Shown in pieces: positions 3,103 through 61,083 of a DNA stretch of 64,000 nucleotides (within the stretch, counting starts at the first letter, position 1; each line of letters opens with the position of its first letter). Origin of the DNA: Candidatus Saccharimonadota bacterium (GTDB lineage: Bacteria > Patescibacteriota > Saccharimonadia > Saccharimonadales > SZUA-47); contig CP065013.1 of NCBI GenBank assembly GCA_016700315.1, positions 257,449 to 321,448 on the forward strand, read 5' to 3'. The notes below the pieces were generated by a model. That model ran no database searches. It worked only from the letters and a program-made list of their open reading frames with translations, and was not told the origin of the DNA. The position numbers were made by a program, and so were the translations under genes.

Positions 3103-3232
3103 TACGGCACCACTGATTACCGATTAGCGATAGAGATCCATACGTACTCCGTGCCCTTTACTGTTTGGCTAAAGACACGAGTCATGAGTTGTGAGTTTTG
3201 TGTTTTTTAGTTTTTGTATTTTTTCAAGTTTG

Positions 3233-6233: not shown

Positions 6234-6393
6234 CTTGTTTAAAGTATAGCATAAGCGTAAAAAGTCTACATCAGAGAGAATTAGTGTACTAAAAGGCTGT
6301 ACCACATTACTCAGTACAGCGAAACTAGCGGCTTCGTTACCCCGTACCCCGTACCTTGTACAGCACTTACTCGGTAGCTCGCCTAACCAACCC

Positions 6394-8386: not shown

Positions 8387-9607
8387 CTACCTCAAAGCAC
8401 CACTGCCCACAAGCCCATAAATTGGCAGTAGAATCGCACCCACAATAACCAGCGATACAATTCCTAGAACTATCATCAAAACTGGCTCAATAACGGTCGA
8501 GATCGCTTTGACCTCATTATCAACTTCTTTTTCATAGTAAACAGCCGTGCGATCCAGCATCTGCTCTAAAGATCCGGAATCTTCACCAATTTTTATCATC
8601 TGCGGCACCAAATCCAAAAAGTAAGGGTCGCCACCTATAGACTCCGATAACGACTTGCCGCCTTTAACCTTTTCGGCTGCTTTGACCACTGATTCTTCTA
8701 TCAAAACATTGTCGATCGCCCTAGAAGTAACCTGCATTGTCTGGAGTAACGGCACACCGCTAGCAACAAGAGTAGTGCCGGTTCGAGTGAACCGCGCCAT
8801 GTAAAGCTTCTTAAACAAGCCACTTATCGGCCACATATTTAGCTTGGCTGTATCTATCGCCCGCTTTCCGCCCATAGTTCTGGCCCATCTTGTTGTAAAA
8901 AACGCAGCGATAGCTACTAGAATCAACACTAACCACCAAAATCTAATCGTAAAGTCTGAGATCGCAAGCAGCAACCTAGTCACGAAAGGTAAATTTGTAC
9001 CAGGAAGACCCTTATACAGCTCCTTTACTTGGGGCAACACGGCCACAACCATGAAACCAACCACTCCGCCCATCACCAACAACACAATCACCGGATAAAT
9101 CAGCGCCCCTCGCACTTTACTGGCCAGCTCAGCATCTTTTTCTTGCTGATTAGCTAGCCTCTCCAAAGCTTTGTCGAGTGTACCCGAAGTCTCACCAGCT
9201 GCAACCAGACTAGTATAGACCTGATTAAAAATGCTAGGGTGTTTTTCCAGTGAGACAGATAGCGCCTTACCGCCTTCGACATCGTTAATTACTTGTCCAA
9301 TAACAGCAGACAGTTTCTTGTTCTTAGTCTGAGACATAACTGTTCGTAAGCTCTGTACTAGAGGTAAACCAGCATTGATAAGCGTAGAAAGCTGGCGCGA
9401 AAAGATAACTTTATCTTTGGCTTTCACTCTATTTAAAAGCCGATCAACAATATTCGCATCACCTGCACCTTTTGGCGTCAGCTCTAGTACTGTCAGCCCC
9501 TGGGCCCGCACCATTTTTGTCGCAGAGTTTTCATTTTCAGCCTCAACACTGCCTTTAACTGCCTTGCCGCTAACCGCATCCTTCGCTGTATATCTATAAG
9601 TTACCAC
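8387..9607 (-). CDS. pilC: Type IV pilus platform protein (GspF/PilC family)
   Basis: Two GspF-type repeats, three TM segments, and position between pilT and the pilins. Confidence 0.9.
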   Translation of the reverse strand: MVTYRYTAKDAVSGKAVKGSVEAENENSATKMVRAQGLTVLELTPKGAGDANIVDRLLNRVKAKDKVIFSRQLSTLINAGLPLVQSLRTVMSQTKNKKLSAVIGQVINDVEGGKALSVSLEKHPSIFNQVYTSLVAAGETSGTLDKALERLANQQEKDAELASKVRGALIYPVIVLLVMGGVVGFMVVAVLPQVKELYKGLPGTNLPFVTRLLLAISDFTIRFWWLVLILVAIAAFFTTRWARTMGGKRAIDTAKLNMWPISGLFKKLYMARFTRTGTTLVASGVPLLQTMQVTSRAIDNVLIEESVVKAAEKVKGGKSLSESIGGDPYFLDLVPQMIKIGEDSGSLEQMLDRTAVYYEKEVDNEVKAISTVIEPVLMIVLGIVSLVIVGAILLPIYGLVGSGALR

Positions 9608-9652
9608 CGCTGGCCTCCTATGAAGTTATTTATTAGCAGCCTAACCATCACC

Positions 9653-10720: not shown

Positions 10721-10808
10721 CAGAATTCCCCCCTGATCTCATACTGTTTGGAACAGCCGTATAGAGCCCTGTGCCCTGAGCCCTGAGATATTCTTACTAA
10801 CCCCACCT

Positions 10809-10836
10809 GTCTCTTGTCTCTTGTCTCTTGTCTCTT
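10809..10836. repeat. Perfect heptamer array (GTCTCTT)x4; a second array GAGCCCT GTGCCCT GAGCCCT GAGATAT lies at 10764-10791
   Basis: Read directly in the pilB-pilT spacer. Confidence 0.95.
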
Positions 10837-10849
10837 CATATCCCCCCTT

Positions 10850-14376: not shown

Positions 14377-14427
14377 ACTTGAACTCCTAAGCGTATAGTC
14401 CCTAGTCCATAGTACATAGTCTTTGGC

Positions 14428-15655: not shown

Positions 15656-15683
15656 AAGCTATTTCATGCAAAGCCTGAAATTA

Positions 15684-16162
15684 GCTAGTCCCTAGACCCT
15701 TGTCGGTTGTCCCTAGTTATCAAGCTAGACTTTTAGAAAGCTTAGTCAGCATTTTTTGTATAATCTCTAGTTCTTCAATTATTGCGGCTATTCCAATTTT
15801 ATAAATGTCTTCAACCATTATTAGTTGGGTCTCTAGTTCTGCGGCAGAGCCCGATGCTATTCGCAAGAAATGTTTAAACTCTTTGTCATTCCTCCTCCTA
15901 TAGCCCTCTGCAATATTTGAAGGTATGCTCACGCTCGATCTCTTCATCTGAGAAGATAGTGCAAAGTCTTCTGTCTTTAGCAATTTTCTACATACTAAGT
16001 ACACTTCCTTGACTAGCGATCGTGATCTTTGCCACACTTTAAGATCATTAAAGTTTTTATCCATAAACCAAATATAGATTACAAAGTAGGGATAAACAAA
16101 AGCGCTACGCGCTATCCCGTCATAAACGGCTACGGACTAGGGACTACTAGCTAGGGTCTAGC
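15684..16162. mobile_element. Four-helix-bundle gene cassette bracketed by inverted heptamer arrays
   Basis: Left array GCTAGTCCCTAGACCCTTGTCGGTTGTCCCTAGTTA (15684-15719). Right array GGCTACGGACTAGGGACTACTAGCTAGGGTCTAGCC (16128-16162). They share reverse-complementary TAGTCCCTAG / CTAGACCC words. Confidence 0.65.
15720..16064 (-). CDS. Four-helix-bundle protein (TIGR02436 / '23S rRNA intervening-sequence protein' family)
   Basis: LKVWQRSRSLVKEVY...SQMKRSSVSIPSNIAEGY.R....F..FLRIASGSAAELETQL is the family signature. Confidence 0.88.
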   Translation of the reverse strand: MDKNFNDLKVWQRSRSLVKEVYLVCRKLLKTEDFALSSQMKRSSVSIPSNIAEGYRRRNDKEFKHFLRIASGSAAELETQLIMVEDIYKIGIAAIIEELEIIQKMLTKLSKSLA

Positions 16163-16205
16163 CACCAAGCTTTTAAATCGGATCGACCGATTAAAAGCTT
16201 GGTGG
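16162..16205 (-). terminator. ~20-bp stem-loop whose one arm is the last codons plus stop of the 838-aa gene (3' stabiliser / terminator candidate, no U tract)
   Basis: CCACCAAGCTTTTAAATCGG-ATC-GACCGATTAAAAGCTTGGTGG. The arms are complementary apart from one bulged A. The right arm encodes ...PPSF-stop. Confidence 0.5.
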
Positions 16206-18707
16206 TAAGCTATTCACCGACTCATAATCTCTAAACTGATTCTCTGGATTATTAACTGCCCCAGCTGGACTAGACAGGTAAAATTCAGGTGTTAGACGTA
16301 TCGTCTCACCCGCCGTGGTAATCGAGCCAGCAAAGGTTTCGTTTGGCGTTGACTGGTTCATCGTTCCCGCCAGCCGCCACAAGTTCAGTTTATTAGTGAT
16401 CACCGCCCCGTTTATCTGTAGTCTCTTGTCAAGGCAAGGGTTGGGTGACATCAAGCTGACATCTGTATCTTTGTTGGCGTTACCCCTCGGATCTCCGGCG
16501 TTCAGCGCCTCGGCATAGCAAGTATAAAGCGTACCATTAGCCACCAAAACGCCGTCGAACCGCGCCAGCCTAGGGCTAATATATATATTACCCGTTGCCA
16601 CAATAATTAGCGACGGCATGTTGCCTACGTTTGTCCAACCAGCGTTGTTATAGGCAATTGCCGCGTCGCCGCTTGGTCCAATGTACGCATCACCATCTAC
16701 ATAAATCCTGTACTTACCACTCACTGCGCCACTAGTCGTGAAGTAAGTATCGCCATTATAGCGCTGCACTGTGCTGCTGCCAGCAGGAGCAGTCGACAGC
16801 GAAACCGCGCCGCCAGCAGCACCGCCAGCCGGCATATCTGCCAACCAATCGGCCGTACACATTGGGTAACCAGCACGGCCACCCAGGTCTTCCTCGGCAG
16901 TTATTGTGCTATTAAACGCCGTCGCATAAGAGTTGGCATCTGGGAAGGTGTTGGCTAGCACCCGCCGCTGCGGGAAAGCATTGTCGGCCCCATTCTGCGT
17001 ACTCGTTCTAAAGCCGGTTATGGAGCCTTGCGCCGTCGCAAGTAGCTGCGATCCCGAACCAACCAAAGCAAACGGATCATTAGCTGTCCGATCCAAGTAA
17101 GTTCTTATGCCAGCAAGCTCATTTGTCTGACAAACCCCTCCCTGCTCAAACCCCGACCCCGCAATCAACTCCCCGCTATAAGCCCTAAAATATGGATAAT
17201 TAGACACCGAGAGCTCCAACGCCGGCACAGAACCATTACAATTTACTACTGTTGCTCCATTTCTGACACTTGCCAGCAGCGGATATATGCCCGGAGGCTT
17301 GTTCACCGTTTGCTCCACAATAATATCGTTCGACGATTGCTGAGGCGTCAAGCTATTATTGCCATTCAGCCCATAGGTAGTATTCGTGGTAACTCCCGCA
17401 GCACCAATCGAGATTAGGTCGATGCTCAGTGGCCAATCAGAGGCAGTTATGTTGCTACCGCCAGTTGCTGCCTCGTTCGTTACTTTAGCAATAACTCTCA
17501 CCCTACCACTTGGCTGAACATTTGGCAGTACGCTATTAATGACTTGGTAAGACAATGTACAGCTCGGCGATCCAGTAACCACCGGGCAACTTCTATTGAG
17601 CGACGAGAGTGATTCGTCGAATGGCATCCACACTTGTAACCCGTTTCTGGCCCCTATATCCCAAAATACCCAAGAGTAGCCGTAGCCCGCCCTAACCGTT
17701 ATAGGGTACTGCACAAAATCATCGTTACCACTTGCGACCCCAAAGTCGGACCTACCACTAGGATTTATAGTTCTAACTATTGCTCCACTTGGGTCGTATT
17801 CATATACCAGCATTTTCGGCATACCTCGCGAATTGAGTGTACCAGGCGGGTTCGACCCGACATTGGCATCGGCATCATATACTTTGAGGAATATTGTCGA
17901 ATCGTTCTGAATAGTGCATCCAGGCTTAAACGACAATGAATACTCCAGATCATTATTGGTTGGCAAGTCGGTCTTCAAGGCAAAAGCCCCCAGGCCGGTT
18001 GGACCCAACAGGGCCTTTCGATTATTCTGCCAGTTGTTTTGATTATACTTATCTGGAGCACCGTTGGTAGCGTTTGACATAGGATCCGCATCAGAGCTAA
18101 ATCCTACATATGATTGCCCAGAAAGAGCATGTGCCGTAAGCTTGCAGACAACATCTGTCGTAAGAGGATTAATAATTTGTGCAACTACTTTTGTAGTCTT
18201 ATATACACCGTTAGATAACAAGAAATCACTCGGTTGAAAAGTAACTGTCTGGGTACCGGTACCAATGAATGTCGTATCCCTGACGATACCTACGGCATTA
18301 ACGCTGGTAGTAGCATGAGCACACAACCATACCTTGACTCTTATCTGCTGAGCTACAGTTGGCTGAGTCCCCGAGTAAAGTATGAATGACGCATTTGGAG
18401 TATGTAGCGTCGAGCCGGGCGAGCCGTCACTATTAGCATAATAAGATGAAAGATAAACATAAGAACCATTAACATCGGGCCAGGTCGCAGATGTTGTGCG
18501 CGGCACGTTATTACAGTTGTTCGAGGCATTCTTAGCTAGCCCAGTTCTAGGGAAGTCAACCGCTGGAGTTTTGAAGTTAGCGTTAGCGCTGTTAAAACAG
18601 CTTGGCAGCGCTGCTGCTTTTTCGCTGTTTAGTAGCACTGTACATGTAGCGATTAGCCCCAGCAGCACAGCAAACAGTATTGGCCTAGCAAACCTGAATC
18701 TCATCAT
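16191..18707 (-). CDS. Large secreted protein (838 aa) of unknown function, co-oriented with the pilus locus
   Basis: Signal-peptide-like N-terminus MMRFRFARPILFAVLLGLIATCTVLL. G/S/T/N-rich, with no recognisable catalytic motif. Start overlaps the stop of the TPR-like gene. Confidence 0.75.
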   Translation of the reverse strand: MMRFRFARPILFAVLLGLIATCTVLLNSEKAAALPSCFNSANANFKTPAVDFPRTGLAKNASNNCNNVPRTTSATWPDVNGSYVYLSSYYANSDGSPGSTLHTPNASFILYSGTQPTVAQQIRVKVWLCAHATTSVNAVGIVRDTTFIGTGTQTVTFQPSDFLLSNGVYKTTKVVAQIINPLTTDVVCKLTAHALSGQSYVGFSSDADPMSNATNGAPDKYNQNNWQNNRKALLGPTGLGAFALKTDLPTNNDLEYSLSFKPGCTIQNDSTIFLKVYDADANVGSNPPGTLNSRGMPKMLVYEYDPSGAIVRTINPSGRSDFGVASGNDDFVQYPITVRAGYGYSWVFWDIGARNGLQVWMPFDESLSSLNRSCPVVTGSPSCTLSYQVINSVLPNVQPSGRVRVIAKVTNEAATGGSNITASDWPLSIDLISIGAAGVTTNTTYGLNGNNSLTPQQSSNDIIVEQTVNKPPGIYPLLASVRNGATVVNCNGSVPALELSVSNYPYFRAYSGELIAGSGFEQGGVCQTNELAGIRTYLDRTANDPFALVGSGSQLLATAQGSITGFRTSTQNGADNAFPQRRVLANTFPDANSYATAFNSTITAEEDLGGRAGYPMCTADWLADMPAGGAAGGAVSLSTAPAGSSTVQRYNGDTYFTTSGAVSGKYRIYVDGDAYIGPSGDAAIAYNNAGWTNVGNMPSLIIVATGNIYISPRLARFDGVLVANGTLYTCYAEALNAGDPRGNANKDTDVSLMSPNPCLDKRLQINGAVITNKLNLWRLAGTMNQSTPNETFAGSITTAGETIRLTPEFYLSSPAGAVNNPENQFRDYESVNSLPPSF

Positions 18708-23775: not shown

Positions 23776-24514
23776 GTCAACATAAAAACCACGACCAAAG
23801 GTTTTTATGTTGACTTATAGGGGTAAGACTACTAACATGCGGGTATTATGGGCAGCGGGAATGCGAGAAAGATTAAGCCGAGCAGGCTCAGACCAAGGAG
23901 CCCTAGCAAGGAGCTTACTTCTAAAATAATTGAGTCCGTCTTGAGAGCTAGCGTTTTAGCTGGTTTTACCGCTTCTGCACTACTGATACCAAACTCTCCT
24001 ATCGCCCTAGAGAAACCAGTTAAATTCTTCCTAGATAAATTGGATCAGAAAGAAAAAGAGCGCCAAATCCGCCGCGTAATTACTGAGATGAAACGGCAAA
24101 AAATCGTCAAAGGAAGCTACGAACATGGTCTTGAGATAACCAATAAAGGACGCGAGCGACTAGCAAAACTAGATTACGACAAACTCGAGATATCTGAACC
24201 ACCTTCTTGGGATAAAAAATGGCGCATAGTACTCTTCGACATTCCTTTTAACAAAGATGAGAAACGTAGAGATTTGTCAGAGAAACTAAAACTAACTGGG
24301 TTTCAGTTACTCCAGCTTAGCGTATGGGTGCATCCGTACCCCTGCCGCGATGAACTAAACAAAATATGTGAGCACTTAGGTGTTGCTAAGTATGTTACCC
24401 TCATAGAAACTGCCCACATTGACCACGAAGAATTACTAAAAAAGCGCTTCAAAAATCTCAAATTACAGTAGTGTGTCAACATAAAAACCTTTGGTCGTGG
24501 TTTTTATGTCGTAC
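23776..24514. mobile_element. Single-gene cassette bounded by 35-bp perfect terminal inverted repeats, each itself a hairpin
   Basis: Left GTCAACATAAAAACC-ACGACCAAA-GGTTTTTATGTTGAC (23776-23814). Right GTCAACATAAAAACC-TTTGGTCGT-GGTTTTTATGTCGTAC (24475-24514). The loops are reverse complements, and 23780-23814 is the exact reverse complement of 24475-24509. Confidence 0.7.
23848..24471 (+). CDS. PaaX-like regulator (winged helix plus Cas2/VapD-fold C-terminal domain)
   Basis: WDKKWRIVLFDIPFNKDEKRRDLSEKLKLTGFQLLQLSVWVHP matches the PaaX C-terminal pattern (W..W.lv.f.ipe..R..R..L...GF..l..svWv.P). A wHTH-like region lies upstream. Confidence 0.65.
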   Translation: MGSGNARKIKPSRLRPRSPSKELTSKIIESVLRASVLAGFTASALLIPNSPIALEKPVKFFLDKLDQKEKERQIRRVITEMKRQKIVKGSYEHGLEITNKGRERLAKLDYDKLEISEPPSWDKKWRIVLFDIPFNKDEKRRDLSEKLKLTGFQLLQLSVWVHPYPCRDELNKICEHLGVAKYVTLIETAHIDHEELLKKRFKNLKLQ

Positions 24515-28165: not shown

Positions 28166-29238
28166 TTGTTGGGCTGCCGAATGTCGGCAAGAGCACTCTT
28201 TTTAATGCGCTGACAGATGCGAATGCGCTGGCGGCTAATTACCCTTTTGCCACGATTGAACCAAACACCGGCATTGTACCGGTACCAGACGAGCGCCTAG
28301 GCAAGCTGGCCGATATGTACAAAAGTAAGAAAATTGTGCCCGCCACAGTAACTTTTGTAGATATTGCGGGGCTAGTTGAAGGTGCAAGTAAAGGCGAAGG
28401 CCTGGGCAATCAGTTCTTGAGTCATATACGTGCTTGTGATGCAATCCTACAGGTTGTGAGAGCCTTTGAAAGTGGCGATGTAATCAGAAGCGATAGTTCA
28501 CGAGACCCAGAACACGACATAGATGTAGTCGCTACTGAGTTAGTGCTAGCTGACCTGCAAACAGTCGAAAAACGCCTGCCCCGTATTCAAAAAGAGGCCA
28601 AAGCCAATCTAAAATTAAAACCCATGCTAGATTACATAGAGACGGTACACGGAATACTTGACTCAGGCAAGCCTCTTTTTTCAGAGTCAGGAGTCATGAG
28701 CCATGAGCTAAGAGGTTGGCTCCAAAAAGAACTGCAGCTTATGACTTTAAAGCCGATTCTGTATCTATTTAACATCGATGACGACGCACTAAGTAGCAAC
28801 GAGCTGAAAACTAAGCTTCGTAACATCGTCACACCCGCCCCCGCTCTTTTTGTTAGCGCCAAGCTAGAAGATGAGCTGCGTGGACTAGATGATATCGACA
28901 GGGCTGAAATGCTGGCAAGCTACGGCGCTAGTGAGTCTGGGCTCAACCAAGTTATCCACTCGGCCTATGACCTACTGGGGCTGCAAAGCTACTTAACCGC
29001 TGGCGAGCAAGAAGTCCGCGCCTGGACCATAAAAAAGGGTTGGACGGCACCACAAGCAGCCGGCGTAATACATGGCGACTTCGAAAGAGGCTTCATAGCT
29101 GCACAAATCGTAGACTATAACGACCTAGTTGCGGCCGGCAGCGAGCAAGCAGCCAAGTCGGCTGGCAAGGTTCGCACCGAAGGCAAAACCTACCAGATGC
29201 GTGAGGGCGATGTGGTAGAGTTCAGGTTCAACGTCTAG
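28147..29238 (+). CDS. ychF: Ribosome-binding ATPase YchF (Obg family)
   Basis: MSLSIGIVGLPNVGKSTLFNALT G1 motif, DIAGLVEGASKGEGLGN, and C-terminal GDFERGFIAAQIV. Start moved to the ATG at 28147. Confidence 0.93.
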   Translation: MSLSIGIVGLPNVGKSTLFNALTDANALAANYPFATIEPNTGIVPVPDERLGKLADMYKSKKIVPATVTFVDIAGLVEGASKGEGLGNQFLSHIRACDAILQVVRAFESGDVIRSDSSRDPEHDIDVVATELVLADLQTVEKRLPRIQKEAKANLKLKPMLDYIETVHGILDSGKPLFSESGVMSHELRGWLQKELQLMTLKPILYLFNIDDDALSSNELKTKLRNIVTPAPALFVSAKLEDELRGLDDIDRAEMLASYGASESGLNQVIHSAYDLLGLQSYLTAGEQEVRAWTIKKGWTAPQAAGVIHGDFERGFIAAQIVDYNDLVAAGSEQAAKSAGKVRTEGKTYQMREGDVVEFRFNV

Positions 29239-30470: not shown

Positions 30471-31244
30471 TTAACGCAAGCTTTTTAGCATATAAAATCG
30501 CTCGACGTTTCCTTTGCTACCGGCAAGTCCAGAATCAGCTTTGTCAACTATTTTGAACAAATTTTGTACCCAGCTTTCGAAGTCGTGAATAATTTCGCGA
30601 CGAACTTTGCTATTTTTGATTACACCCCTGTTAATTTGCTCCTTGCCTGCTTCAAACTGAGGCTTGAGCATAGCTATGATTAATGTTTTGTTATTAACGA
30701 ATAAAGAGATGTGAGGTAGTATTTTTCGCATCGAAATAAAGCTCACGTCAATCACTACTATGTCTGGTACTTCGGAGAGTACTACTCTTCGTTCCTCGTT
30801 CTTCGTTCCTCGTTCTATTTGGCTACTTTGTAGCCAAATCTCACGAATATCAGTCTTTTCGTGCAGTTCAATTTTGGGATTTCCTAACAGTGTTGGGTGA
30901 AGTTGATCCGTGCCAACATCAACTGCAACAACTTTACTAGCACCATTTTGCAGTGCAAAATCCGTGAAGCCTCCCGTGCTACTGCCCACGTCCAAAACGA
31001 CTTTATTTGTAAAATCTAGCCCTAGCTCTCTCGCTACAGAAGCCAGCTTCTCGCCTGCTCGTGATACGTACTTTCCTGCTGTAGCTGAAACTACAATTTT
31101 GTCACTAGCTGAAACCTCGAAAGCCGGTTTTGTAATAACATTACCGTTAACTCGCACCGTGCCGCGCTTAATCAAATCCTCGGCCCTAGACCGCGACTGA
31201 GTCTTGCCTGACAAAAATAAAACTTGATCAAGCCGCCGCTTCAT
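30471..31244 (-). CDS. tlyA: TlyA-family 16S/23S rRNA (cytidine-2'-O)-methyltransferase
   Basis: N-terminal S4 domain (RLDQVLFLSGKTQSRSRAEDLIKRGTVRVNG) and FtsJ-type SAM motif VLDVGSSTGGFTD. Confidence 0.88.
   Translation of the reverse strand: MKRRLDQVLFLSGKTQSRSRAEDLIKRGTVRVNGNVITKPAFEVSASDKIVVSATAGKYVSRAGEKLASVARELGLDFTNKVVLDVGSSTGGFTDFALQNGASKVVAVDVGTDQLHPTLLGNPKIELHEKTDIREIWLQSSQIERGTKNEERRVVLSEVPDIVVIDVSFISMRKILPHISLFVNNKTLIIAMLKPQFEAGKEQINRGVIKNSKVRREIIHDFESWVQNLFKIVDKADSGLAGSKGNVERFYMLKSLR
30787..30839. repeat. Intragenic module inside tlyA: heptamer array (CTTCGTT CCTCGTT)x2 plus adjacent 9-bp-stem hairpin ATTTGGCTA-CTTTG-TAGCCAAAT
   Basis: Read directly. Translated in frame as WLQSSQIERGTKNEERRVV. 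Confidence 0.9.
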
Positions 31245-31970: not shown

Positions 31971-32534
31971 CTACTTCTTTCGTTCGCGGTAGGAACCGTC
32001 TTCTGTGCTGACACTTATCGTGTCGCCCACTTTGATAAAAGCTGGCACACGAGTTTCAACACCGGTTTCTAGTGTTGCTGGCTTAGTGAGTGCGCTGCTT
32101 GTGTCACCACGTACGACATCTTCGGTATAAGTTACTTTTAGCCAGACATTTTTGGCAAGCTCGATGCTGACGGCATTGCCGTCGAGCAGCATCACCTTTA
32201 CATTGTCGCCTTCTTTTAGGTAGCCGACTTGATCCTCAACGGATTCTTTGGACAGTTCAAACTGTTCGTAAGTTTCGCCGTCCATAAAATACCATTTAGC
32301 GCCGTCGTTATAAAGATACTGAACATTTTTGTACGCTAGATCTGCTCTGTCTAGTTGTTCGTTGCCTTTAAAAGTTTTTTCTAACACACGACCGTCCAGA
32401 AGACTTTTGATGCGCACATTAACAATGGAACCACCGCGTCCCATGACTTTTTGTGAGTAGTCTAGTACTTGTTGCGGCACGCCTTCGTACATGAAGATAG
32501 TACCTTTTTTTAGTTCTGTAATTGATAATGCCAT
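31971..32534 (-). CDS. efp: Elongation factor P
   Basis: MALSITELKKGTIFMYEGVPQQVLDYSQKVMGRGGSIVNVRIKSLLDG is a typical EF-P KOW-like N-terminus. 187 aa. Confidence 0.93.
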   Translation of the reverse strand: MALSITELKKGTIFMYEGVPQQVLDYSQKVMGRGGSIVNVRIKSLLDGRVLEKTFKGNEQLDRADLAYKNVQYLYNDGAKWYFMDGETYEQFELSKESVEDQVGYLKEGDNVKVMLLDGNAVSIELAKNVWLKVTYTEDVVRGDTSSALTKPATLETGVETRVPAFIKVGDTISVSTEDGSYRERKK

Positions 32535-32546
32535 TTTAAATCCTTT

Positions 32547-32906
32547 TTAGTTGTAATCTGGGTCACTTGCTTTATGTAAAAGCTCAGCTACTTCGTGGGT
32601 TGCTTGGCTTAGATATTGATAACTTGCGTCTTTCATAATTCCTGCTTGATGCAAAACAAGCAAGTTTTCAGTAATCTCGCCCATCTCACGTTCCGCGCCC
32701 TTAAAAGCCAAAACTTGATCTGTTGCGTTGAAGGCCCCACCACTCTCATAAATGAGCTGGCGTATGTTCCCCAGATGATTATGCAAAGCAAAAATCACAT
32801 GATCTGGGAACATGGTGTTTTTCAGGCCTTCAACATTCAGCTCTTGAAAGCCACCAACTTGCGAAAGCAGCCGGTCAATCGCCGCTTTTAGGTTATCAAT
32901 ATCCAT
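32547..32906 (-). CDS. Hypothetical protein (119 aa)
   Basis: ORF with coding-like composition, in an operon position between rpsR and efp. No motif recognised. Confidence 0.5.
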   Translation of the reverse strand: MDIDNLKAAIDRLLSQVGGFQELNVEGLKNTMFPDHVIFALHNHLGNIRQLIYESGGAFNATDQVLAFKGAEREMGEITENLLVLHQAGIMKDASYQYLSQATHEVAELLHKASDPDYN

Positions 32907-32919
32907 AGCTACTATTTAA

Positions 32920-33123
32920 CTAGTTTGCCGAAACAAATGGCAGTAGTGCCAAATGTCGTGCACGCTTAACAGCTGCGCTCAAATGACGCTGCTGACTTTC
33001 GGTCAAGCCTGTCTTTTTACGAGTTTCAATAGCACCGTATTGATTAACATAGCGCTGCAATGTTTTAAAATCTTTGTAATCAAAAAATGCTACGTCTGTT
33101 CTGTGTTTAAAAATTTTCGCCAC
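32920..33123 (-). CDS. rpsR: 30S ribosomal protein S18
   Basis: FFDYKDFKTLQRYVNQYGAIETRKKTGLTESQQRHLSAAVKRARHLALLPF. GTG start with an AGGAGG Shine-Dalgarno sequence. Confidence 0.93.
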   Translation of the reverse strand: MAKIFKHRTDVAFFDYKDFKTLQRYVNQYGAIETRKKTGLTESQQRHLSAAVKRARHLALLPFVSAN

Positions 33124-33169
33124 TGTAAAAATCCTCCTGATTTTTAGATTAATGTTTGATGATTAACGA

Positions 33170-33543
33170 TTAAAGAATCTTTTCACCGTTAACCTTTATG
33201 AGTTTTATTAAAGCCGCTTTTAGTTCTTCTACTTTTGATATTAACTCTGCTTCCAAAACGCTAGAAAGGTAGTTTGTTTTTTTGATATTCCTATCTGAGC
33301 TTCTAGTTCAAATAATGAGCCGAGTGCATGTCGATAAAACTGCTCTTTCTCTCTGGCACTTCTTCTGCCAAAGCCTTCTGCGATATTAGATGGCAAAGAT
33401 ACAGCAGCTCGTCTCATTTGCGAAATCAAGCCAAAAACTTCTTCTTTAGGAAAAGCCGAAGTAACTTGGTAGACACTCAGACAAATAGACTCCGAAATCT
33501 GCCAAACCCTTAAGTCTTTAAAGGACTTTATCGTCGTACTCAT
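33170..33543 (-). pseudogene. Four-helix-bundle protein gene with a -1 frameshift in an A7 run (or homopolymer sequencing error), between ssb and rpsR
   Basis: LRVWQISESI...SQMRRAAVSLPSNIAEGFGRRS...ALGSLFELEAQ is the family signature. After the A7 run (T7 at 33277-33283 on the plus strand) the +1 frame stays open for 37 codons (KTNYLSSVLEAELISKVEELKAALIKLIKVNGEKIL-stop at 33170-33172), restoring a typical ~124-aa length. Confidence 0.6.
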
Positions 33544-33585
33544 TCTTCGTAAATCCTTAATCGTTAATCTTTAATCAACTAAGGC

Positions 33586-34062
33586 CTAGAAAGGTATATC
33601 ATCGAGATTGATTGGCTCGTCGTCTACATCTTCGATCTCGGCTTCTTTTTTCTTGGATGGTTTACCGCTAGGGGCGTCTGAACTTGCAGAGCTACTGCTT
33701 GAGCCATGATCGTTGCTACCGCTACTACCTTGTCCACCGCCAAGGAATGTTACATCTTGTGCCACAACCTCGACTTTACTGCGCTTTTGACCATCTTGCT
33801 CCCAAGAACGGCTTTGCAGCCGGCCGTTTACGAGTGCTGGCCTGCCCTTTGTCAGGTATTGAGCCACACGCTCCCCGAGTGGACCCCAAGCTACGATATC
33901 GATGAAATCTGTAGCTTCCTGCCACTCGCCGTTGCTACTTTTGTAACTGCGGTTCAAAGCTAGGCTAAAGCTACAAACGCTTTGACCGCTAGGCGTGCTC
34001 CTAAGCTCTGGATCACGCGTTAAGTTGCCCATGAGAATGACTTGGTTGAATGACCTTGCCAT
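33586..34062 (-). CDS. ssb: Single-stranded DNA-binding protein
   Basis: OB-fold N-terminus MARSFNQVILMGNLTRDPELR, a G/S-rich linker, and the acidic tip DDIPF. Confidence 0.93.
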   Translation of the reverse strand: MARSFNQVILMGNLTRDPELRSTPSGQSVCSFSLALNRSYKSSNGEWQEATDFIDIVAWGPLGERVAQYLTKGRPALVNGRLQSRSWEQDGQKRSKVEVVAQDVTFLGGGQGSSGSNDHGSSSSSASSDAPSGKPSKKKEAEIEDVDDEPINLDDIPF

Positions 34063-34179: not shown

Positions 34180-34497
34180 CTAGCTGTTGCGTACTGACAC
34201 TATCTTCTCTGCCTTGGCATCAAACTTCCATTCAGCACATGTACCTTTACCTATTCTACGGCCACAAATAAGGACTGCGCCAAAAAAAATTCTCTGTTCG
34301 CCTATGGATTCGTATATTAAACCCCTTACTTCGGGAGTAATGCCGCCGATGCGTATTGCCTCAAGTTCATCTGCAATAGAAACCTCAGCAGCAGCTTCAA
34401 GCAGTTTACCTGCAGCTGCTTTGTAGACGTCGTCGCTCCACCCTTCATCCCTGCCGTTTCTGGTGCATCTAGGGCATACTTCAGGTAGACAGTTCAT
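34180..34497 (-). CDS. Hypothetical 105-aa Cys-containing protein inserted between rpsF and ssb
   Basis: ATGA overlap with the rpsF stop. CPRC motif near the N-terminus. No family recognised. Confidence 0.45.
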   Translation of the reverse strand: MNCLPEVCPRCTRNGRDEGWSDDVYKAAAGKLLEAAAEVSIADELEAIRIGGITPEVRGLIYESIGEQRIFFGAVLICGRRIGKGTCAEWKFDAKAEKIVSVRNS

Positions 34498-34880
34498 TAC
34501 TCTTCGTCCTTGTCGTCTTCTTCGTCGTCAGCCGAGGTGCGCTTGGCAGCTTTTTCGGCTTTTTCGGCTTTCAAAGCTTCTGCTTTTGCAATCGCCTTTA
34601 GGTCAGGCTTGGTCAAAAGAAATCTTATAACTTCTTCTGTAATGTTAAGCTGATCGTTAATAGCCTTTACGCCTTCTGCCGGAAGCTCTAGCGTGTAGAA
34701 CACGTAGACGGCATGGTTAACGCCTTTGATAGTGTAAGCCATCTTACGCTTACCCCAGTTATCGGTAGCCTTGATTTCACCCTTAACACTTTTGACTAGT
34801 TTCTCGATTTTGCCGGTAGCTTTGTCGAGATCTGCCTCAAGATCAGGGTGAATTAACACCGCTAATTCGTATTGTGACAT
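34497..34880 (-). CDS. rpsF: 30S ribosomal protein S6 with acidic C-terminal tail
   Basis: MSQYELAVLIHPDLEADLDK...WGKRKMAYTIKGVNHAVYVFYTLE. Confidence 0.92.
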   Translation of the reverse strand: MSQYELAVLIHPDLEADLDKATGKIEKLVKSVKGEIKATDNWGKRKMAYTIKGVNHAVYVFYTLELPAEGVKAINDQLNITEEVIRFLLTKPDLKAIAKAEALKAEKAEKAAKRTSADDEEDDKDEE

Positions 34881-34910
34881 TCGTCACTCCTTTCTTCTGC
34901 GAAGAAACGA

Positions 34911-34988
34911 GTTAGTAGTTAGTAGTTGGTAGTTGGTAGTTAGTAGCCTCATGAGCTACCATCTACCATCTACCTTCTACCTTCTACC
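34911..34988 (-). promoter_or_regulatory. Long imperfect hairpin in the rpsF leader built from two inverted heptamer arrays
   Basis: GTTAGTAGTTAGTAGTTGGTAGTTGGTAGTTAGTAGC (34911-47), a 7-nt loop, then GCTACCATCTACCATCTACCTTCTACCTTCTACC (34955-88). Hand pairing gives runs of 5-7 bp separated by mismatches roughly once per heptamer unit. Confidence 0.6.
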
Positions 34989-35114
34989 GACCTGTAACTT
35001 CTTTCGGTTTCTAGGTTAGGCGCACCAGAGGCCCCAACCAAGAAGTTAATTAATATTAAATATAGTATAAAGTATTATGAATAAAGTATCAAGTGCTAAG
35101 TGCTAACAAATGCG

Positions 35115-43675: not shown

Positions 43676-44383
43676 CTAGATATCTTCAATAGTTTTAGCA
43701 TCTTTTACTTCATAGCCTCCGATTTTCGTACGTCGAAGCTCAAGACAGTAAGCACCCGTACCAAGTTCTTTGCCAATATCTTCCGCAAGGGTACGAATGT
43801 ATGTGCCGCTGGAGACATGGGCACGTACTTTTATTTCTGGCCAGACGTACTCAAGCAGCTCCAGGCTATAAATCGTTACTTGGCGTGGTTTCAGTTCGAC
43901 TTTTTTGCCCGCCCTAGCAAGCTCATAAGCCTTTTTGCCGTTAACCTTGATAGCCGAATACTGCGGCGGCACCTGCGTGATCTCACCAACAAACTTAGCT
44001 AGCGCCTTTTGTACCTCTTCAGTAGATGGTAGATGGTAGTTAGTAGTTGGAGTGGCTTCTCTTCGTTCATCGTTCAGCATCCCTCGTTCTGTGATTTCCC
44101 CTTCCGGATCACCGGTCGTCGAGACAGCCCCAAGTCGAAAAGTCGCCTCATAGACCTTATCTTGCTTCATAAACTCGTCCTGACGCTTCGTGGCACTGCC
44201 AATCAGGATTATCAGCAGCCCCGTAGCAAAAGGATCGAGCGTGCCACTGTGGCCTACTTTTAGTTTCTGTTTACCGTTTACTGAGGACTGAGGACTATTT
44301 TTTCGTAAATCAGAGCGGATTTTGGCCACCACATCAAAACTAGTCCACCCCGATGGTTTATCTATCAGAATTACTTGATCCAT
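43676..44383 (-). CDS. truB: tRNA pseudouridine(55) synthase
   Basis: KVGHSGTLDPFATGLLIILIG catalytic Asp motif, and QVPPQYSAIKVNGKKAYELAR. Confidence 0.92.
   Translation of the reverse strand: MDQVILIDKPSGWTSFDVVAKIRSDLRKNSPQSSVNGKQKLKVGHSGTLDPFATGLLIILIGSATKRQDEFMKQDKVYEATFRLGAVSTTGDPEGEITERGMLNDERREATPTTNYHLPSTEEVQKALAKFVGEITQVPPQYSAIKVNGKKAYELARAGKKVELKPRQVTIYSLELLEYVWPEIKVRAHVSSGTYIRTLAEDIGKELGTGAYCLELRRTKIGGYEVKDAKTIEDI
44022..44088. repeat. Intragenic heptamer arrays inside truB: GTAGATG GTAGATG GTAGTTA GTAGTTG (44022-49) and CTTCGTT CATCGTT CAGCATC CCTCGTT (44061-88)
   Basis: Read directly. Translated in frame as ERGMLNDERREATPTTNYHLPST. The E. coli TruB sequence as I recall it is about 14 residues shorter here. 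Confidence 0.85.
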
Positions 44384-45026: not shown

Positions 45027-45330
45027 ATTACCCGTATTCTGACAAATACTTTAGCCGCAATCAACCATAAAGTATTGCAAAACTAAAAAGCGTCGCAAAT
45101 CAAAGCCACTTCAATGGCGCAACTAAAGTTCTCTGCAGCCACGGATTCCTAAACTCAAGCCCAAAATCCACTCCCCTAAGCCAGATAATCCAGCAAATAT
45201 TCCACAAAAATTCACACAATACAGCCCTCAAATCAACAGATACAAAATTCAAAATTCACATTTCCCTCCCCTGTATAAGGACGGACCTTATACAGAGGAG
45301 CGGGGAGCGATTTGGTTGGTTTCAGTGGTA

Positions 45331-58374: not shown

Positions 58375-61083
58375 TCATAGCTCCCCCCATGTTTTACCGG
58401 TGGATATGTCTACACGCAGTTTTACGCCCAGCTCTGGATAAATATTTTCCATAGTCTGCTTCATCATTTTGCCAACCCGCTCAGCATCAGCTTCGGCACA
58501 TTCAACCAAAATACTGTCATGTATCTGCAATATCTGTCTCGGCTCTTCCTCGTTCCTCGTTCCTCGTTCCTCGTTCCAGTGTCTAAATTGGCTTTCTAAT
58601 TTAGACATTGCCATCTTGGTTATATCAGCAGCGCCTCCCTGAATTGGCATATTGATTGCGGCCCGCAAAGCTGCCTCACGTACGACAAAATTGCTGCTCC
58701 GAGCATCCGGCGTTGGGCGGCGACGTCCGAGCGGCGTCTCCACAAAACCTTTGTTTTTGGCTTGGTCACGAAAACGCTCCATCATTGCCTTCAGTTTGGG
58801 GCGCACCTCGAAGTATTTATCGATAAACTTTTTGGAATCGGCGTAGCTCATGCCCGTTCCTTCACTGAGTCCGTGAACACCTTGCCCATACAAAATACCG
58901 AAATTAACAGCTTTGGCCGCGTAGCGCATCTCTTTGCTGACTTCTTCGGGCTTGACACCTTGAACCAAAGCGGCCGTCTCGATATGAATGTCTCGATCAG
59001 AGTTAAACGACTCAATCATTGCTTGATCACCGCTCAGTGCCGCGGCAATGCGAAGCTCAAACTGACTGTAGTCGGCACTCACCAATACATTGCCAGGCTC
59101 GGCGATAAAGCCAGTTCTGATCTCTCGACCAATTTCGGTGCGGATAGGAATGTTCTGCAAGTTGGGATCGTTGCTACTAAGCCGGCCAGTTGCTGCGACC
59201 GTCAGCGCCAGTGTTGTATGTATACGATTGTTCTCATCTACCTGCTCTGGCAGCGTATCTACGTAGGTACTTTTGAGCTTTGTGTACTCACGATATTTCT
59301 CGATATCGTTGATGATCGGGTGAAGGTCTTTTAGTTTAGCGAGTACGTTACTGGCTGTGCTGAAGTGGCCAGCCTTCCCTTTCTTGCTTGCGATTGTAGG
59401 CAAGTTTAGCTTCACAAACAAAATATCACTCAGCTGGCTAGGACTTGAGATATTAAACTCTTGGTCGGCATAGCCATAAATTGTTTGTTCAATGTCACTA
59501 ATTTGATCTGTTAACTTGTCAGATAAAACCTTGAAAAAGCTTGGCTCAATCTTCACCCCAGTACGCTCAATTCGAGCTAAGACTGGTATCACTGGCCAGT
59601 CCACTTGCTCGGCCATTTTGATCAAACTTGTAACCTCGCTCATTTGCTCACCCTGTCGCTCAGCAAGCCCCCGGATCACAGCGCAGATTTCTGGTAGCTT
59701 AATTAGCGCTTCATCATCATCAATATTGTCGAGCTCACCAGCGTAGTTTAGATCCTCGCTCGCAAGCGCCGTAAGCGAAAAATCTCGCCTCAGAGAATTA
59801 ACAATAAATGCGCCAACTTGTGTGTCGTGGCTTACCTGCGGCAAGTTTTCTATCCCAAGCTCGAGTAAAATTTGAAAGATATTCTTTAAATCGTGCCCGG
59901 TAACGGCTTTGCCGTTTAGTAGTTGGTCGATGGTAGATGGTAGATGGGAATTAGCTACTGATTTTCTTAAATCAAAAATATAGCAATTTGTTTTGTCAGA
60001 TAGCGCCAAAACAGTTGGCTCGTGACCGTGCTTACCACTGCTGCGAGCAAAAATTACTACATCCCCTTCAAGCTGCAGCGATGACACTGCGGAGCTCTCC
60101 TGAACGTAGACAGGTGTCGGGGTTTTGAGATCGAGGATTGCCGCACTTATGTTTGACGAAAGGTCATTTGTCGATTCTGCAACTGCTACTTTGGACGAAT
60201 CACTACGCATTCCTTGTGGCAAGTTGCGCAGCAGGCTCCTGAACTCTAGGCGCTTTAGTATGCTTGCCAGCTCATTCGTATCTAGCTTATTTATGTCCAT
60301 TTGTTCAAGGTCCAGCTCGATTGGCGCATCTGCGTAAAGTCGAGCAATTTCTTTACTCATGTAGGCCGAATCTCGCCCCGCTTCAAGCTTTTTCTGTACT
60401 GCGCCCTTGGTGAGAGCAACATTCTCGTAAACACCATCGAGAGTTTTGTATTGTTTAAGTAGTTCAACCGCTGTTTTTTCACCAATGCCAGGAACACCGG
60501 GAATGTTGTCCGACGAATCGCCTTTTAGAGCTTTTAAGTCCAGAAATTGCTCAGGCTCGAGGCCGTATTTATCACGAAATTGTTCTGGCCGATAAAGCTC
60601 GATATTTGTTAGTCCTTTTTTGAGCGCATAGACATGGGTGTTCTCGCTAATGCACTGCAGTGCATCAAGATCACTGGTGATTAGCATTGTCTCTAACCCG
60701 GCGGCATCAGCTTTTTTAGCCAGGCCACACATAATATCGTCTGCCTCGTAATCATCGAGTTCGTATAGCGGCCAATTTAGTGCTCTTAGCAGCTCGTGAA
60801 GAATAGGAATTTGTACATAAAAGTCTGGCGGTGCCGGCTTTCGTCCTGCCTTGTAGTCTGGGTAGACGGCTAGTCGTTTTCGGATATTGGTTTTTGGTTT
60901 ATCCCAAGCTACACAAACATAATCTGGTTTGAGCCGCTTAATCAGCTCCAGCGCCATTGCTGCGAAGCCATAAACTCCCCCTGTTGGCGTCCCGTCGGCG
61001 GTCGAAAGCCCCGGCATCGCGTAATAGCCACGGTAAAAGACTGACTTTCCGTCGATAATCGCAAGTTTTTTTCTACTCTCCAT
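58375..61083 (-). CDS. polA: DNA polymerase I
   Basis: 5'-nuclease domain, DYSQFELRIAA (motif A), KAVNFGILYGQG (motif B) and QIHDSILVE (motif C). Confidence 0.94.
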   Translation of the reverse strand: MESRKKLAIIDGKSVFYRGYYAMPGLSTADGTPTGGVYGFAAMALELIKRLKPDYVCVAWDKPKTNIRKRLAVYPDYKAGRKPAPPDFYVQIPILHELLRALNWPLYELDDYEADDIMCGLAKKADAAGLETMLITSDLDALQCISENTHVYALKKGLTNIELYRPEQFRDKYGLEPEQFLDLKALKGDSSDNIPGVPGIGEKTAVELLKQYKTLDGVYENVALTKGAVQKKLEAGRDSAYMSKEIARLYADAPIELDLEQMDINKLDTNELASILKRLEFRSLLRNLPQGMRSDSSKVAVAESTNDLSSNISAAILDLKTPTPVYVQESSAVSSLQLEGDVVIFARSSGKHGHEPTVLALSDKTNCYIFDLRKSVANSHLPSTIDQLLNGKAVTGHDLKNIFQILLELGIENLPQVSHDTQVGAFIVNSLRRDFSLTALASEDLNYAGELDNIDDDEALIKLPEICAVIRGLAERQGEQMSEVTSLIKMAEQVDWPVIPVLARIERTGVKIEPSFFKVLSDKLTDQISDIEQTIYGYADQEFNISSPSQLSDILFVKLNLPTIASKKGKAGHFSTASNVLAKLKDLHPIINDIEKYREYTKLKSTYVDTLPEQVDENNRIHTTLALTVAATGRLSSNDPNLQNIPIRTEIGREIRTGFIAEPGNVLVSADYSQFELRIAAALSGDQAMIESFNSDRDIHIETAALVQGVKPEEVSKEMRYAAKAVNFGILYGQGVHGLSEGTGMSYADSKKFIDKYFEVRPKLKAMMERFRDQAKNKGFVETPLGRRRPTPDARSSNFVVREAALRAAINMPIQGGAADITKMAMSKLESQFRHWNEERGTRNEEEPRQILQIHDSILVECAEADAERVGKMMKQTMENIYPELGVKLRVDISTGKTWGEL
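58548..58607. repeat. Intragenic module inside polA: perfect (CCTCGTT)x4 plus adjacent 10-bp-stem hairpin TGTCTAAATT-GGCTTTCT-AATTTAGACA
   Basis: Read directly. Translated in frame as KLESQFRHWNEERGTRNEEEPRQ, just upstream of motif C. Confidence 0.92.
59917..59951. repeat. Second intragenic heptamer array in polA: TAGTAGT TGGTCGA TGGTAGA TGGTAGA TGGGAAT
   Basis: Read directly. Same unit family as the truB and rpsF-leader arrays. Translated as ANSHLPSTIDQLL. Confidence 0.85.

Follow-up and report, generated by a model that had tools for sequence, protein, structure and literature searches.

We analysed a 64-kb stretch of the genome of a Saccharimonadales bacterium of the candidate phyla radiation (CPR) (hereafter the window), in which the rpsF-ssb-rpsR operon contains an inserted gene of the four-helix-bundle (4HB) family bracketed by inverted tandem arrays of 7-nt units (heptads). 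All genes of this region lie on the minus strand and comprise rpsF (34497-34880), a 105-aa open reading frame (ORF) named orf105 (34180-34497), ssb (33586-34062, matching PF00436 at 1.1e-36 and ending with the TAG stop codon at 33586-33588), rpsR (32920-33123, or 32920-33138 including its Shine-Dalgarno (SD) sequence; PF01084 at 4e-18), a 119-aa ORF named orf119 (32547-32906), and efp (31971-32534). The place of ssb in the operon order is identical in all relatives compared. The stretch inserted between ssb and rpsR (33139-33585) consists of the 4HB cassette and 9 nt, GCCTTAGTT (33577-33585), which remain of the original spacer between the ssb stop codon and the cassette. On the other side, the SD sequence of rpsR (AGGAGG, 33133-33138) directly abuts the 3' array and is followed by a GTG start codon at 33121-33123. 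In silico excision of positions 33139-33576 leaves the stop codon, 9 nt, AGGAGG, 9 nt, and GTG (a 24-nt spacer), which resembles an unoccupied junction. The boundaries of the cassette coincide with the arrays.

The gene within the cassette (33170-33543, minus strand) belongs to the PF05635/TIGR02436 family and is a pseudogene. Its present ORF (33241-33543, minus strand) encodes 100 aa, the end of which is an out-of-frame tail; it is likewise assigned to PF05635, and an identical protein (P0001) has been called in other assemblies. If the frame is repaired, the 124-aa product scores 114.9 bits against PF05635 (cut-off 33.8) and 105.3 bits against TIGR02436 (cut-off 24), and it matches the sequence of XCC0516 (PDB 2GSC) with an E value of 7.6e-19. 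The R-x3-S-x3-N-x2-E(G) motif described for the family (PMC3936711) is present and reads RRAAVSLPSNIAEG in the window, with S49, S52, N53, I54, A55, E56, and G57 invariant in our alignment A2. A structure model was made for an intact syntenic orthologue, P0011; the model has four helices (predicted local distance difference test, pLDDT, 96.4) and a TM score of 0.92 to 2GSC and of approximately 0.8 to 4DWL and 8UB7, which are structures of Avd and of the ribonucleoprotein (RNP) of diversity-generating retroelements (DGRs). Both 2GSC and 2RLD contain five chains. In many Saccharimonadales orthologues (P0016-P0031; 3001-3414 in L025 and 3001-3405 in L026), the ORF continues into the 3' heptad array, and this read-through produces C-terminal tails with a periodicity of seven residues, such as ..SNPKSLISNP.. 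or ..FVNR.

The reading frame is broken at 33275-33283 (minus strand), where a run of seven A residues on the gene strand (T7 on the forward strand) occupies 33277-33283. An earlier reading of this DNA, made from the letters alone (hereafter the sequence-only reading), had located the frameshift in this A7 run and had offered cassette decay, a homopolymer sequencing error, or slippage-dependent expression as explanations. Adding one A to the run does yield a 124-aa product ending at 33170, as had been proposed; the base that is missing, however, is a T adjoining the run, immediately after AAAAAAAC and between 33276 and 33275, the ancestral sequence being AAAAAAAC-T-AAAC. Exact-protein look-ups with the single-stranded DNA-binding protein (SSB) and S18 of the window identified 20 loci in 18 public samples (Logan, ENA, JGI, and NCBI GCA_041909835.1), all of which have the cassette at the same place together with A7. 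The T is absent, as in the window, from 13 of the 18 samples, and is kept in the other five, where AAAAAAAC-T-AAAC is in frame and encodes KKLNYLSS with a Leu (L90) whose conservation across the family alignment reaches at least 90%, so that the frame break is a genuine T deletion beside the run. Within the T-missing group, eight loci have an additional 1-nt deletion in a downstream A4 run and two have a change from CAA to TAA at codon 42; the five T-keeping samples have a change from TGT to TGA at codon 21 and one GATTAAA unit fewer.

The ORF has therefore been inactivated several times independently, with at least three lesions across the 18 samples, and of the three options the decay of the cassette is the one borne out by the T loss, the two nonsense codons, and the second 1-nt deletion. 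In the window, the deletion cuts helix 4 short. Programmed slippage at the A7 run or a homopolymer artefact, to which the position of the run beside the frame break and the repair by a single added A had pointed, is highly improbable and was rejected. The sequence-only reading had named A8 in the reads as the result that would remove the pseudogene call, and A8 was present in none of the 18 samples, all of which have A7, which speaks against a sequencing error; what sets the in-frame allele apart is a T beyond the run that restores the conserved Leu, this allele is itself dead through the TGA at codon 21, and the remaining alleles have the TAA at codon 42 or the further deletion. Such independent nonsense and frameshift lesions in sister alleles are not what a programmed slippage site would show.

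The 5' heptad array of the cassette (33544-33576, minus strand, with the heptads at 33549-33576) reads GATTAAA GATTAAC GATTAAG GATTTAC GAAGA, runs up to the start codon, and is rich in G (7 residues) and poor in C (2 residues). The 3' array (33139-33174, minus strand, with the heptads at 33147-33174) reads TTTAATC GTTAATC ATCAAAC ATTAATC TAAAAATC, is C-rich and G-poor, and overlaps the repaired stop codon (33170-33172). The claim that the flanking arrays are complementary and contain an exact 13-bp inverted repeat was confirmed: GATTAACGATTAA at 33161-33173 and TTAATCGTTAATC at 33557-33569 are exact reverse complements of each other, neither has a further exact copy within the window, and a 13-bp match arose in 0 of 5000 shuffles of the two flanks, the maximum being 12. 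This repeat is the core of 31-nt arms that are 77% complementary. Flank complementarity of the other window ORFs of at least 120 aa was mostly 4-7, with two exceptions of 9 and 23, the latter belonging to the ORF at 23848-24471. One GATTAAA unit is absent from the allele found in five samples (L001, L005, L008-L010, and L016). We could not find other convincing copies of the GATTAAN unit in the window that would mark a regulon.

We then asked how common this architecture is in the family. A metagenome scan in which loci were picked by protein similarity alone gave 80 diverse loci, and together with the Saccharimonadales loci 84 full-length 4HB genes were available. Autocorrelation at lag 7 upstream and downstream of these genes was 0.42 and 0.39, compared with 0.27 and 0.26 in controls (1024 gene flanks); lag 14 was raised as well, and other lags were not. 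At least three tandem 7- or 8-nt units on either side were present in 45 of the 84 4HB genes versus 16 of 1024 controls, and the complementarity of a gene's own flanks exceeded the 99th percentile of cross-cassette pairs for 48 of 84 genes versus 1 of 300 control genes. With 110-nt flanks, a stem was found for 70 of the 84 genes and for 7 of 320 controls; these stems have a median length of 29 bp, or 4.1 units (interquartile range 3.6-5.0), the 5' arm ending a median of 16 nt before the ATG and the 3' arm starting a median of 3 nt past the stop codon. The unit sequence itself varies among cassettes (e.g., GCGTGAA, GGGGTCA, GTGGTCA, CTTCTAA, and GGATTCA), and the 3' array is nonetheless complementary to the 5' array of its own cassette. 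Inverted heptad arrays bracket most members of the 4HB family.

The arrays are also oriented with respect to transcription. Sixty cassettes have a 5' arm that is rich in G and poor in C, compared with eight in which it is C-rich (p 6e-11). Of 73 cassettes, 70 (96%) follow a gene that runs in the same direction, at a median distance of 47 nt. Both features suggest a constraint at the level of the transcript. From the insertion in a ribosomal-protein operon, the sequence-only reading had proposed a preference for highly transcribed RNA contexts; what the survey shows is a preference for sites directly behind a co-directional gene, as at accB-accC in Xanthomonas and cmr3-cmr2 (PMC3936711). In two loci (2396-2758 in L157 and 2501-2878 in L160), the arrays flanking the 4HB gene are direct rather than inverted copies, and the downstream array there may belong to a following unit as its 5' array. 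In L092, approximately 3.5 kb separate the 4HB cassette from a long, near-perfect (CAGATTA) x11 array at 9531-9609. Distant period-7 arrays (fragments only) numbered 48 in 402 kb of 4HB loci, nine of which use the cassette's own unit, compared with six in 804 kb of 74 4HB-free Saccharimonadales loci.

A scan of one genome per species based on S18 alignment retrieved 80 Saccharimonadales loci, 78 of which contain both ssb and rpsR. The ssb-rpsR spacer is empty (9-44 nt) in 40 of these 78 species, in agreement with the claim that the two genes usually adjoin. An intact 4HB gene lies at the junction in four species, far from the universal presence that would have spoken against an inserted cassette, and an ORF-less heptad-array hairpin is found in three (L033, L039, and L049; z -6.7 in L039). 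The remaining species have unrelated small ORFs or unidentified non-coding elements in this spacer. Two of the other non-coding elements that occupy the junction elsewhere in Saccharimonadales are conserved: one begins with GGCTGCACATTYCGGGCGAAAGCCTGCGTCAAAA, and the other reads GGAAAAGAGCAGCCCGAG...GCGATGAGAAAAACCGNAGGNTTGTCTC and is reversed in L047. Junction elements of this kind were seen in L027, L028, L035, L040, L059, L064, L076, L094, and L106, and also in L061, L079, L083, and L047, and Rfam searches of these elements in the relatives returned nothing meaningful.

The relatedness of the cassettes does not follow that of their hosts. The nearest full-length homologues of the window protein are 54-58% identical in local alignments and are all located in the rpsF-ssb-rpsR operon, between ssb and rpsR in L021 and L023 and just after rpsR in L025 and L026, and all four share arrays of the GATT/AATC type. 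The nearest species (L027 and L028, with S18 97% identical) have no 4HB gene and carry unrelated elements at the junction. The identity of 4HB proteins is not correlated with that of the EF-P of their hosts (Spearman rho 0.05). Between the loci L055 and L103, the identity is 96% for EF-P and S6 and approximately 90% for flanking DNA, whereas their cassettes encode proteins that are just 63% identical and have different heptad units; this divergence (identity of approximately 60%) is limited to the arrays and the ORF, and similarity breaks exactly at the outer ends of the arrays. Conversely, wherever a pair of cassettes that are 66-80% identical and have the same GGATTCNAGG arrays could be tested, their neighbours proved non-homologous. 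The block replacement between L055 and L103 and the unrelated neighbours of similar cassettes indicate that the unit which is gained, lost, and replaced comprises the arrays and the ORF. These sequence comparisons point to the arrays and ORF behaving as a mobile or exchanged unit that is sporadic at this junction.

Several known systems resemble this element. Intervening sequences (IVSs) of rRNA that contain an S23p ORF, as in Coxiella burnetii and Leptospira, belong to the same PF05635 family. The 23S IVS of Coxiella is 428 nt long, compared with approximately 440 nt for the window copy; RNase III cuts its 28-bp terminal stem, its S23p ORF is preceded by GACAGAT heptamers whose copy number varies, and this ORF is decaying (PMC4990558). 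The window element shares with such IVSs terminal inverted repeats, which in this copy might form a stem of approximately 30 bp, a decaying ORF, and a sporadic distribution (PMC4990558), as well as tandem heptamers before the start codon whose copy number varies by strain. Unlike 23S IVSs, which reside in helix 9, 25, or 45, it lies in an mRNA operon spacer; its location outside rRNA means that it does not strictly count as an rRNA IVS, while its build is the same. The stem of the window copy is also AU-rich and, unlike that of Coxiella, not part of the predicted minimum free energy (MFE) structure, and RNase III excision is here something that we only infer. No rRNA was found in the window, where Rfam at gathering thresholds gave one tRNA only.

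Avd, the accessory protein of DGRs, has the same fold and forms a pentameric barrel, and it binds an RNA stem-loop encoded beside its own gene. Unlike Avd loci, the cassette has rpsF, orf105, ssb, rpsR, orf119, and efp as its neighbours, with no reverse transcriptase, template repeat, or variable repeat nearby, and the Avd profiles remain below their cut-offs (NF033474, 16.4 vs 80; PF22296, 19 vs 40). The element is not a DGR because it lacks a reverse transcriptase and reaches that Avd score of only 16.4. A transposon with a recognisable enzyme was excluded as well, the 4HB gene being the sole ORF of the cassette, with no transposase or recombinase. XCC0516 (2GSC) and BT_0352 (2RLD) are intact 4HB proteins, unlike the pseudogene of the window, and genomic architecture is not described alongside their structures. 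An independent case is that of the cultured organism Xanthomonas campestris, in which a gene whose protein is 85% identical to XCC0516 is inserted between accB and accC with inverted heptad arrays (GGGAATC GGGAGTG GAGAATC GGGAATC on one flank and CATTCCC CATTCTC GACTCCC TATTCCC on the other). These arrays are the GGGAATC repeats which Rehm et al. described as quadruplex-forming and of which they counted 70 convergent pairs in the genome of this organism, with the 4HB gene unmentioned (PMC4692102). These repeats, TAACTGA of Beggiatoaceae, Cyanobacteria, and Bacteroidetes, and those of Calothrix PCC 7601 share with the cassettes the 7-nt period, an intergenic location just before start codons, and convergent pairs; unlike the cassettes, they mostly have no ORF between the arrays. 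The papers on heptanucleotide repeats that could be searched propose G-quadruplexes or translational control and do not mention the 4HB family (PMC4679880, PMC4692102).

Taken together, we consider that the element is probably a degenerate cassette of the IVS type, that is, a horizontally exchanged PF05635 gene with inverted arrays of approximately four heptads, located in the ssb-rpsR spacer between the stop codon and the SD sequence. Such a cassette would have neither a promoter nor a terminator of its own and would be carried on the transcript of the host operon; a promoter and terminator scan gave counts not above shuffle expectation and no site inside the cassette. The two arms may pair into an imperfect stem of approximately 30 bp that loops out the insert, and this stem could be cut by RNase III as in the homologous 23S rRNA IVSs. 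The host junction (stop codon, SD sequence, and start codon) would remain functional, since rpsR has its own AGGAGG directly after the 3' array, and the insert might be nearly neutral. In the lineage of the window, the protein would no longer be made and the element would be a remnant with a weak stem. By analogy with the systems above, we infer that the arms most likely serve as a stem for RNase III and/or as a platform to which a 4HB pentamer binds.

Several observations weigh against this interpretation. In the 477-nt RNA of the window copy, the MFE structure (z -1.6) has no terminal stem and each AU-rich arm folds on itself, so we do not claim stem formation for this copy; the duplex of the two arms is predicted at -24 kcal/mol compared with -13.9 kcal/mol for the two self-folded arms. 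A terminal stem is part of the MFE structure of eight other cassettes (L021, L023, L043, L055, L103, L119, L131, and L147), and also of the other cassette of the window described below. None of the stems in the family is perfect (median of 5 mismatches in 29 bp), and their mismatches are partly periodic (0.28 at lag 7 vs approximately 0.17 at other lags). Over the 70 stems, G.U and A.C mismatches number 74 and 78; without an excess of G.U, the usual sign of selection on a sense-strand RNA helix is missing. The window and L023 share approximately 29 identical nt of their 5' arrays despite just 58% identity of the proteins, which looks like sequence recognition more than pairing alone. Neither the cassette boundaries of the window nor the comparison of L055 and L103 showed a target-site duplication. 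Finally, neither a gene nor a signature motif of RNase III was found in the 64-kb window, a result that is uninformative for a piece of this size.

Other readings were weighed against the proposed IVS-type cassette. The syntenic closest homologues, all in the same operon with arrays of the GATT/AATC type, initially suggested that the 4HB gene has long belonged to the operon by vertical descent, has a function related to the ribosome, and was lost in many lineages. This is very unlikely, and was dropped after the species survey and the comparison of hosts with cassettes: the gene is at the junction in only four of 78 species, L027 and L028 have unrelated elements there despite S18 identity of 97%, 4HB proteins do not co-diverge with their hosts, the block has been replaced between hosts with 96% identical EF-P, and the gene is dead in the window species through several independent lesions. 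A possible alternative, which is compatible with RNase III cutting and which we hold only tentatively, is that the heptad stem serves mainly as a binding platform for a pentameric 4HB protein, with approximately one heptad and a periodic unpaired base per protomer, for the purpose of autoregulation or mobility. The predicted fold of the orthologue P0011, so close to 2GSC and near to 4DWL and 8UB7, and the five chains of 2GSC and 2RLD are consistent with it. In the DGR RNP, all five Avd protomers touch an 11-bp stem-loop via flipped-out bases (bioRxiv 10.1101/2023.10.23.563531), and a stem of four to five heptads in which unpaired bases recur at regular intervals would be suited to an Avd-like pentamer, although this is an analogy and not evidence. 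The median arm of 4.1 units, the recurrence of mismatches at lag 7, the absence of a G.U excess, and the conservation of the array between the window and L023 beyond what pairing needs would also fit. However, unit sequences differ widely among close homologues (L055 and L103, 63%), so that the specificity of the protein would need to change quickly; the periodic mismatches could be neutral if slippage homogenises each arm separately; and in the window the protein is dead though the arrays are intact.

We consider it unlikely that the inverted arrays act instead as DNA, as single-stranded hairpins or cruciforms that are substrates of recombination or replication slippage and by which the cassette is moved or copied, in the manner of the repetitive extragenic palindromic (REP) sequences flanking RAYT genes or of IS200/IS605 ends. 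The lack of wobble asymmetry, the mobility suggested by L055 and L103 and by the non-homologous neighbours, the ORF-less hairpins at the ssb-rpsR junction and in the rpsF leader, the polymorphic copy number of units (in the window species and in Coxiella, PMC4990558), and the many ORF-less convergent GGGAATC pairs of Xanthomonas (PMC4692102) would all agree with a DNA-level role. Against it speak the strand asymmetry relative to the gene (60 G-rich vs 8 C-rich 5' arms, p 6e-11), the 96% of upstream neighbours that are co-directional, and a 4HB protein without a recombinase or nuclease domain and boundaries at which no target duplications were seen. In REP/REPIN and RAYT systems, a small gene is flanked by an inverted short repeat, and the same repeat is dispersed between genes without the ORF. 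The likeness is one of analogy only, as 4HB proteins have no known catalytic domain and their repeats are tandem heptads rather than single palindromes. Going beyond the IVS-type cassette, it is conceivable, although speculative and in our view improbable as a whole, that 4HB pentamers and heptad hairpins form one system, in which the protein would recognise stems of approximately five units, with each protomer on one unit in the manner of Avd on its stem-loop, and would maintain, copy, or move them. As part of the same conjecture, cassettes would be autonomous copies, and ORF-less arrays and hairpins would be their non-autonomous derivatives, which might include the rpsF-leader hairpin of the window, GGGAATC of Xanthomonas, TAACTGA of Beggiatoaceae, and the cyanobacterial heptanucleotide repeats.

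Further elements of these kinds are present in the window. The other 4HB cassette that had been claimed for it was found on the minus strand at 15683-16162 (cassette 1). It contains an intact 114-aa 4HB gene (15720-16064) between a 5' array reading TAGACCC TAGCTAG TAGTCCC TAGTCCG (16130-16162) and a 3' array reading CTAGGGA CAACCGA CAAGGGT CTAGGGA (15683-15719), and in the MFE structure of its RNA the 3' flank base-pairs with the 5' flank, 31 nt of the latter being involved. Immediately upstream of this cassette and after an 838-aa gene, a near-perfect 44-nt palindrome, CCACCAAGCTTTTAAATCGGATCGACCGATTAAAAGCTTGGTGG (16163-16206), may be the terminator of that gene. The rpsF leader contains an ORF-less hairpin of inverted heptad arrays (34907-34991, minus strand) with arms of (GGTAGAA/GGTAGAT) x5 and (ACTACCA/ACTACTA) x5, located between a promoter-like site (35092-35064) and the start of rpsF. 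Its RNA has an MFE of -48.2 kcal/mol (z -7.8), with small internal loops between successive short helices, and it is conserved in close strains. Short-read contigs (L002, L019, and other Logan contigs) often stop inside heptad hairpins, e.g., in the middle of the rpsF-leader hairpin, suggesting that the hairpins fragment assemblies.

In total, tandem arrays of period 7 number 14 in the window, and arrays of periods 5, 6, or 8-11 are absent. They include those at 112-159, 3185-3206, 6335-6361, 10764-10838, 14396-14420, 28684-28708, 30786-30816, 44021-44048, 45238-45264, 58544-58579, and 59922-59950. Several of the period-7 arrays are within ORFs, and some units recur: TAGTCCC at 14396 matches a unit of cassette 1, three sites have GGTAGAT, and two have CCTCGTT. 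A 207-aa ORF on the plus strand (23848-24471) lies between the arms of a perfect 23-bp inverted repeat, CGACCAAAGGTTTTTATGTTGAC, at approximately 23792-23814 and 24478-24500. It is not a 4HB gene and has no heptads; among the other window ORFs of 120 aa or more, it alone has long complementary flanks. Two small ORFs of the operon are lineage-specific additions: orf105, between rpsF and ssb, overlaps the rpsF stop codon and is missing from some strains of the same species, and orf119, between rpsR and efp, is also present in L027 and L028. Pfam searches gave no convincing match to either, and in NCBIfam orf105 had no match and orf119 reached 19 bits only against a cut-off of 750.

To our knowledge, no function has been assigned to the proteins encoded by rRNA IVSs in approximately 30 years, and we know of no explanation for the scattered 4HB copies that have been noted in unrelated operons such as cas loci. 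What was already known comprises the terminal stems of rRNA IVSs, the heptamers of the Coxiella IVS, 4HB genes among cas genes, e.g., between cmr3 and cmr2 (PMC3936711), and 4HB genes in 16S and 23S rRNA insertions of the CPR (PMC11270868). In the literature that could be searched, which included few subscription journals, the only stated link between the 4HB family and heptamer arrays was that in Coxiella, and we found neither a general rule that 4HB genes are packaged between inverted heptad arrays, nor a 4HB gene described as an exchangeable block in mRNA operon spacers, nor a tie to heptanucleotide repeat families.

The present analysis indicates that the IVS architecture, in which an ORF preceded by heptamers lies between complementary arms, extends beyond rRNA and is the general package of the 4HB family. 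This package also occupies the spacers between stop codon and SD sequence of ordinary operons, ssb-rpsR here and accB-accC in Xanthomonas, and appears to be exchanged as a block. It ties the 4HB family to heptanucleotide tandem arrays, to which only G-quadruplex or translational roles had been given until now. The annotation of CPR genomes is affected as well, as the arrays break short-read assemblies and read-through of them gives odd C-terminal tails. If 4HB pentamers and heptad hairpins did form one system, this would explain the function of S23p, the origin of rRNA intervening sequences, and the excess of heptanucleotide repeats.

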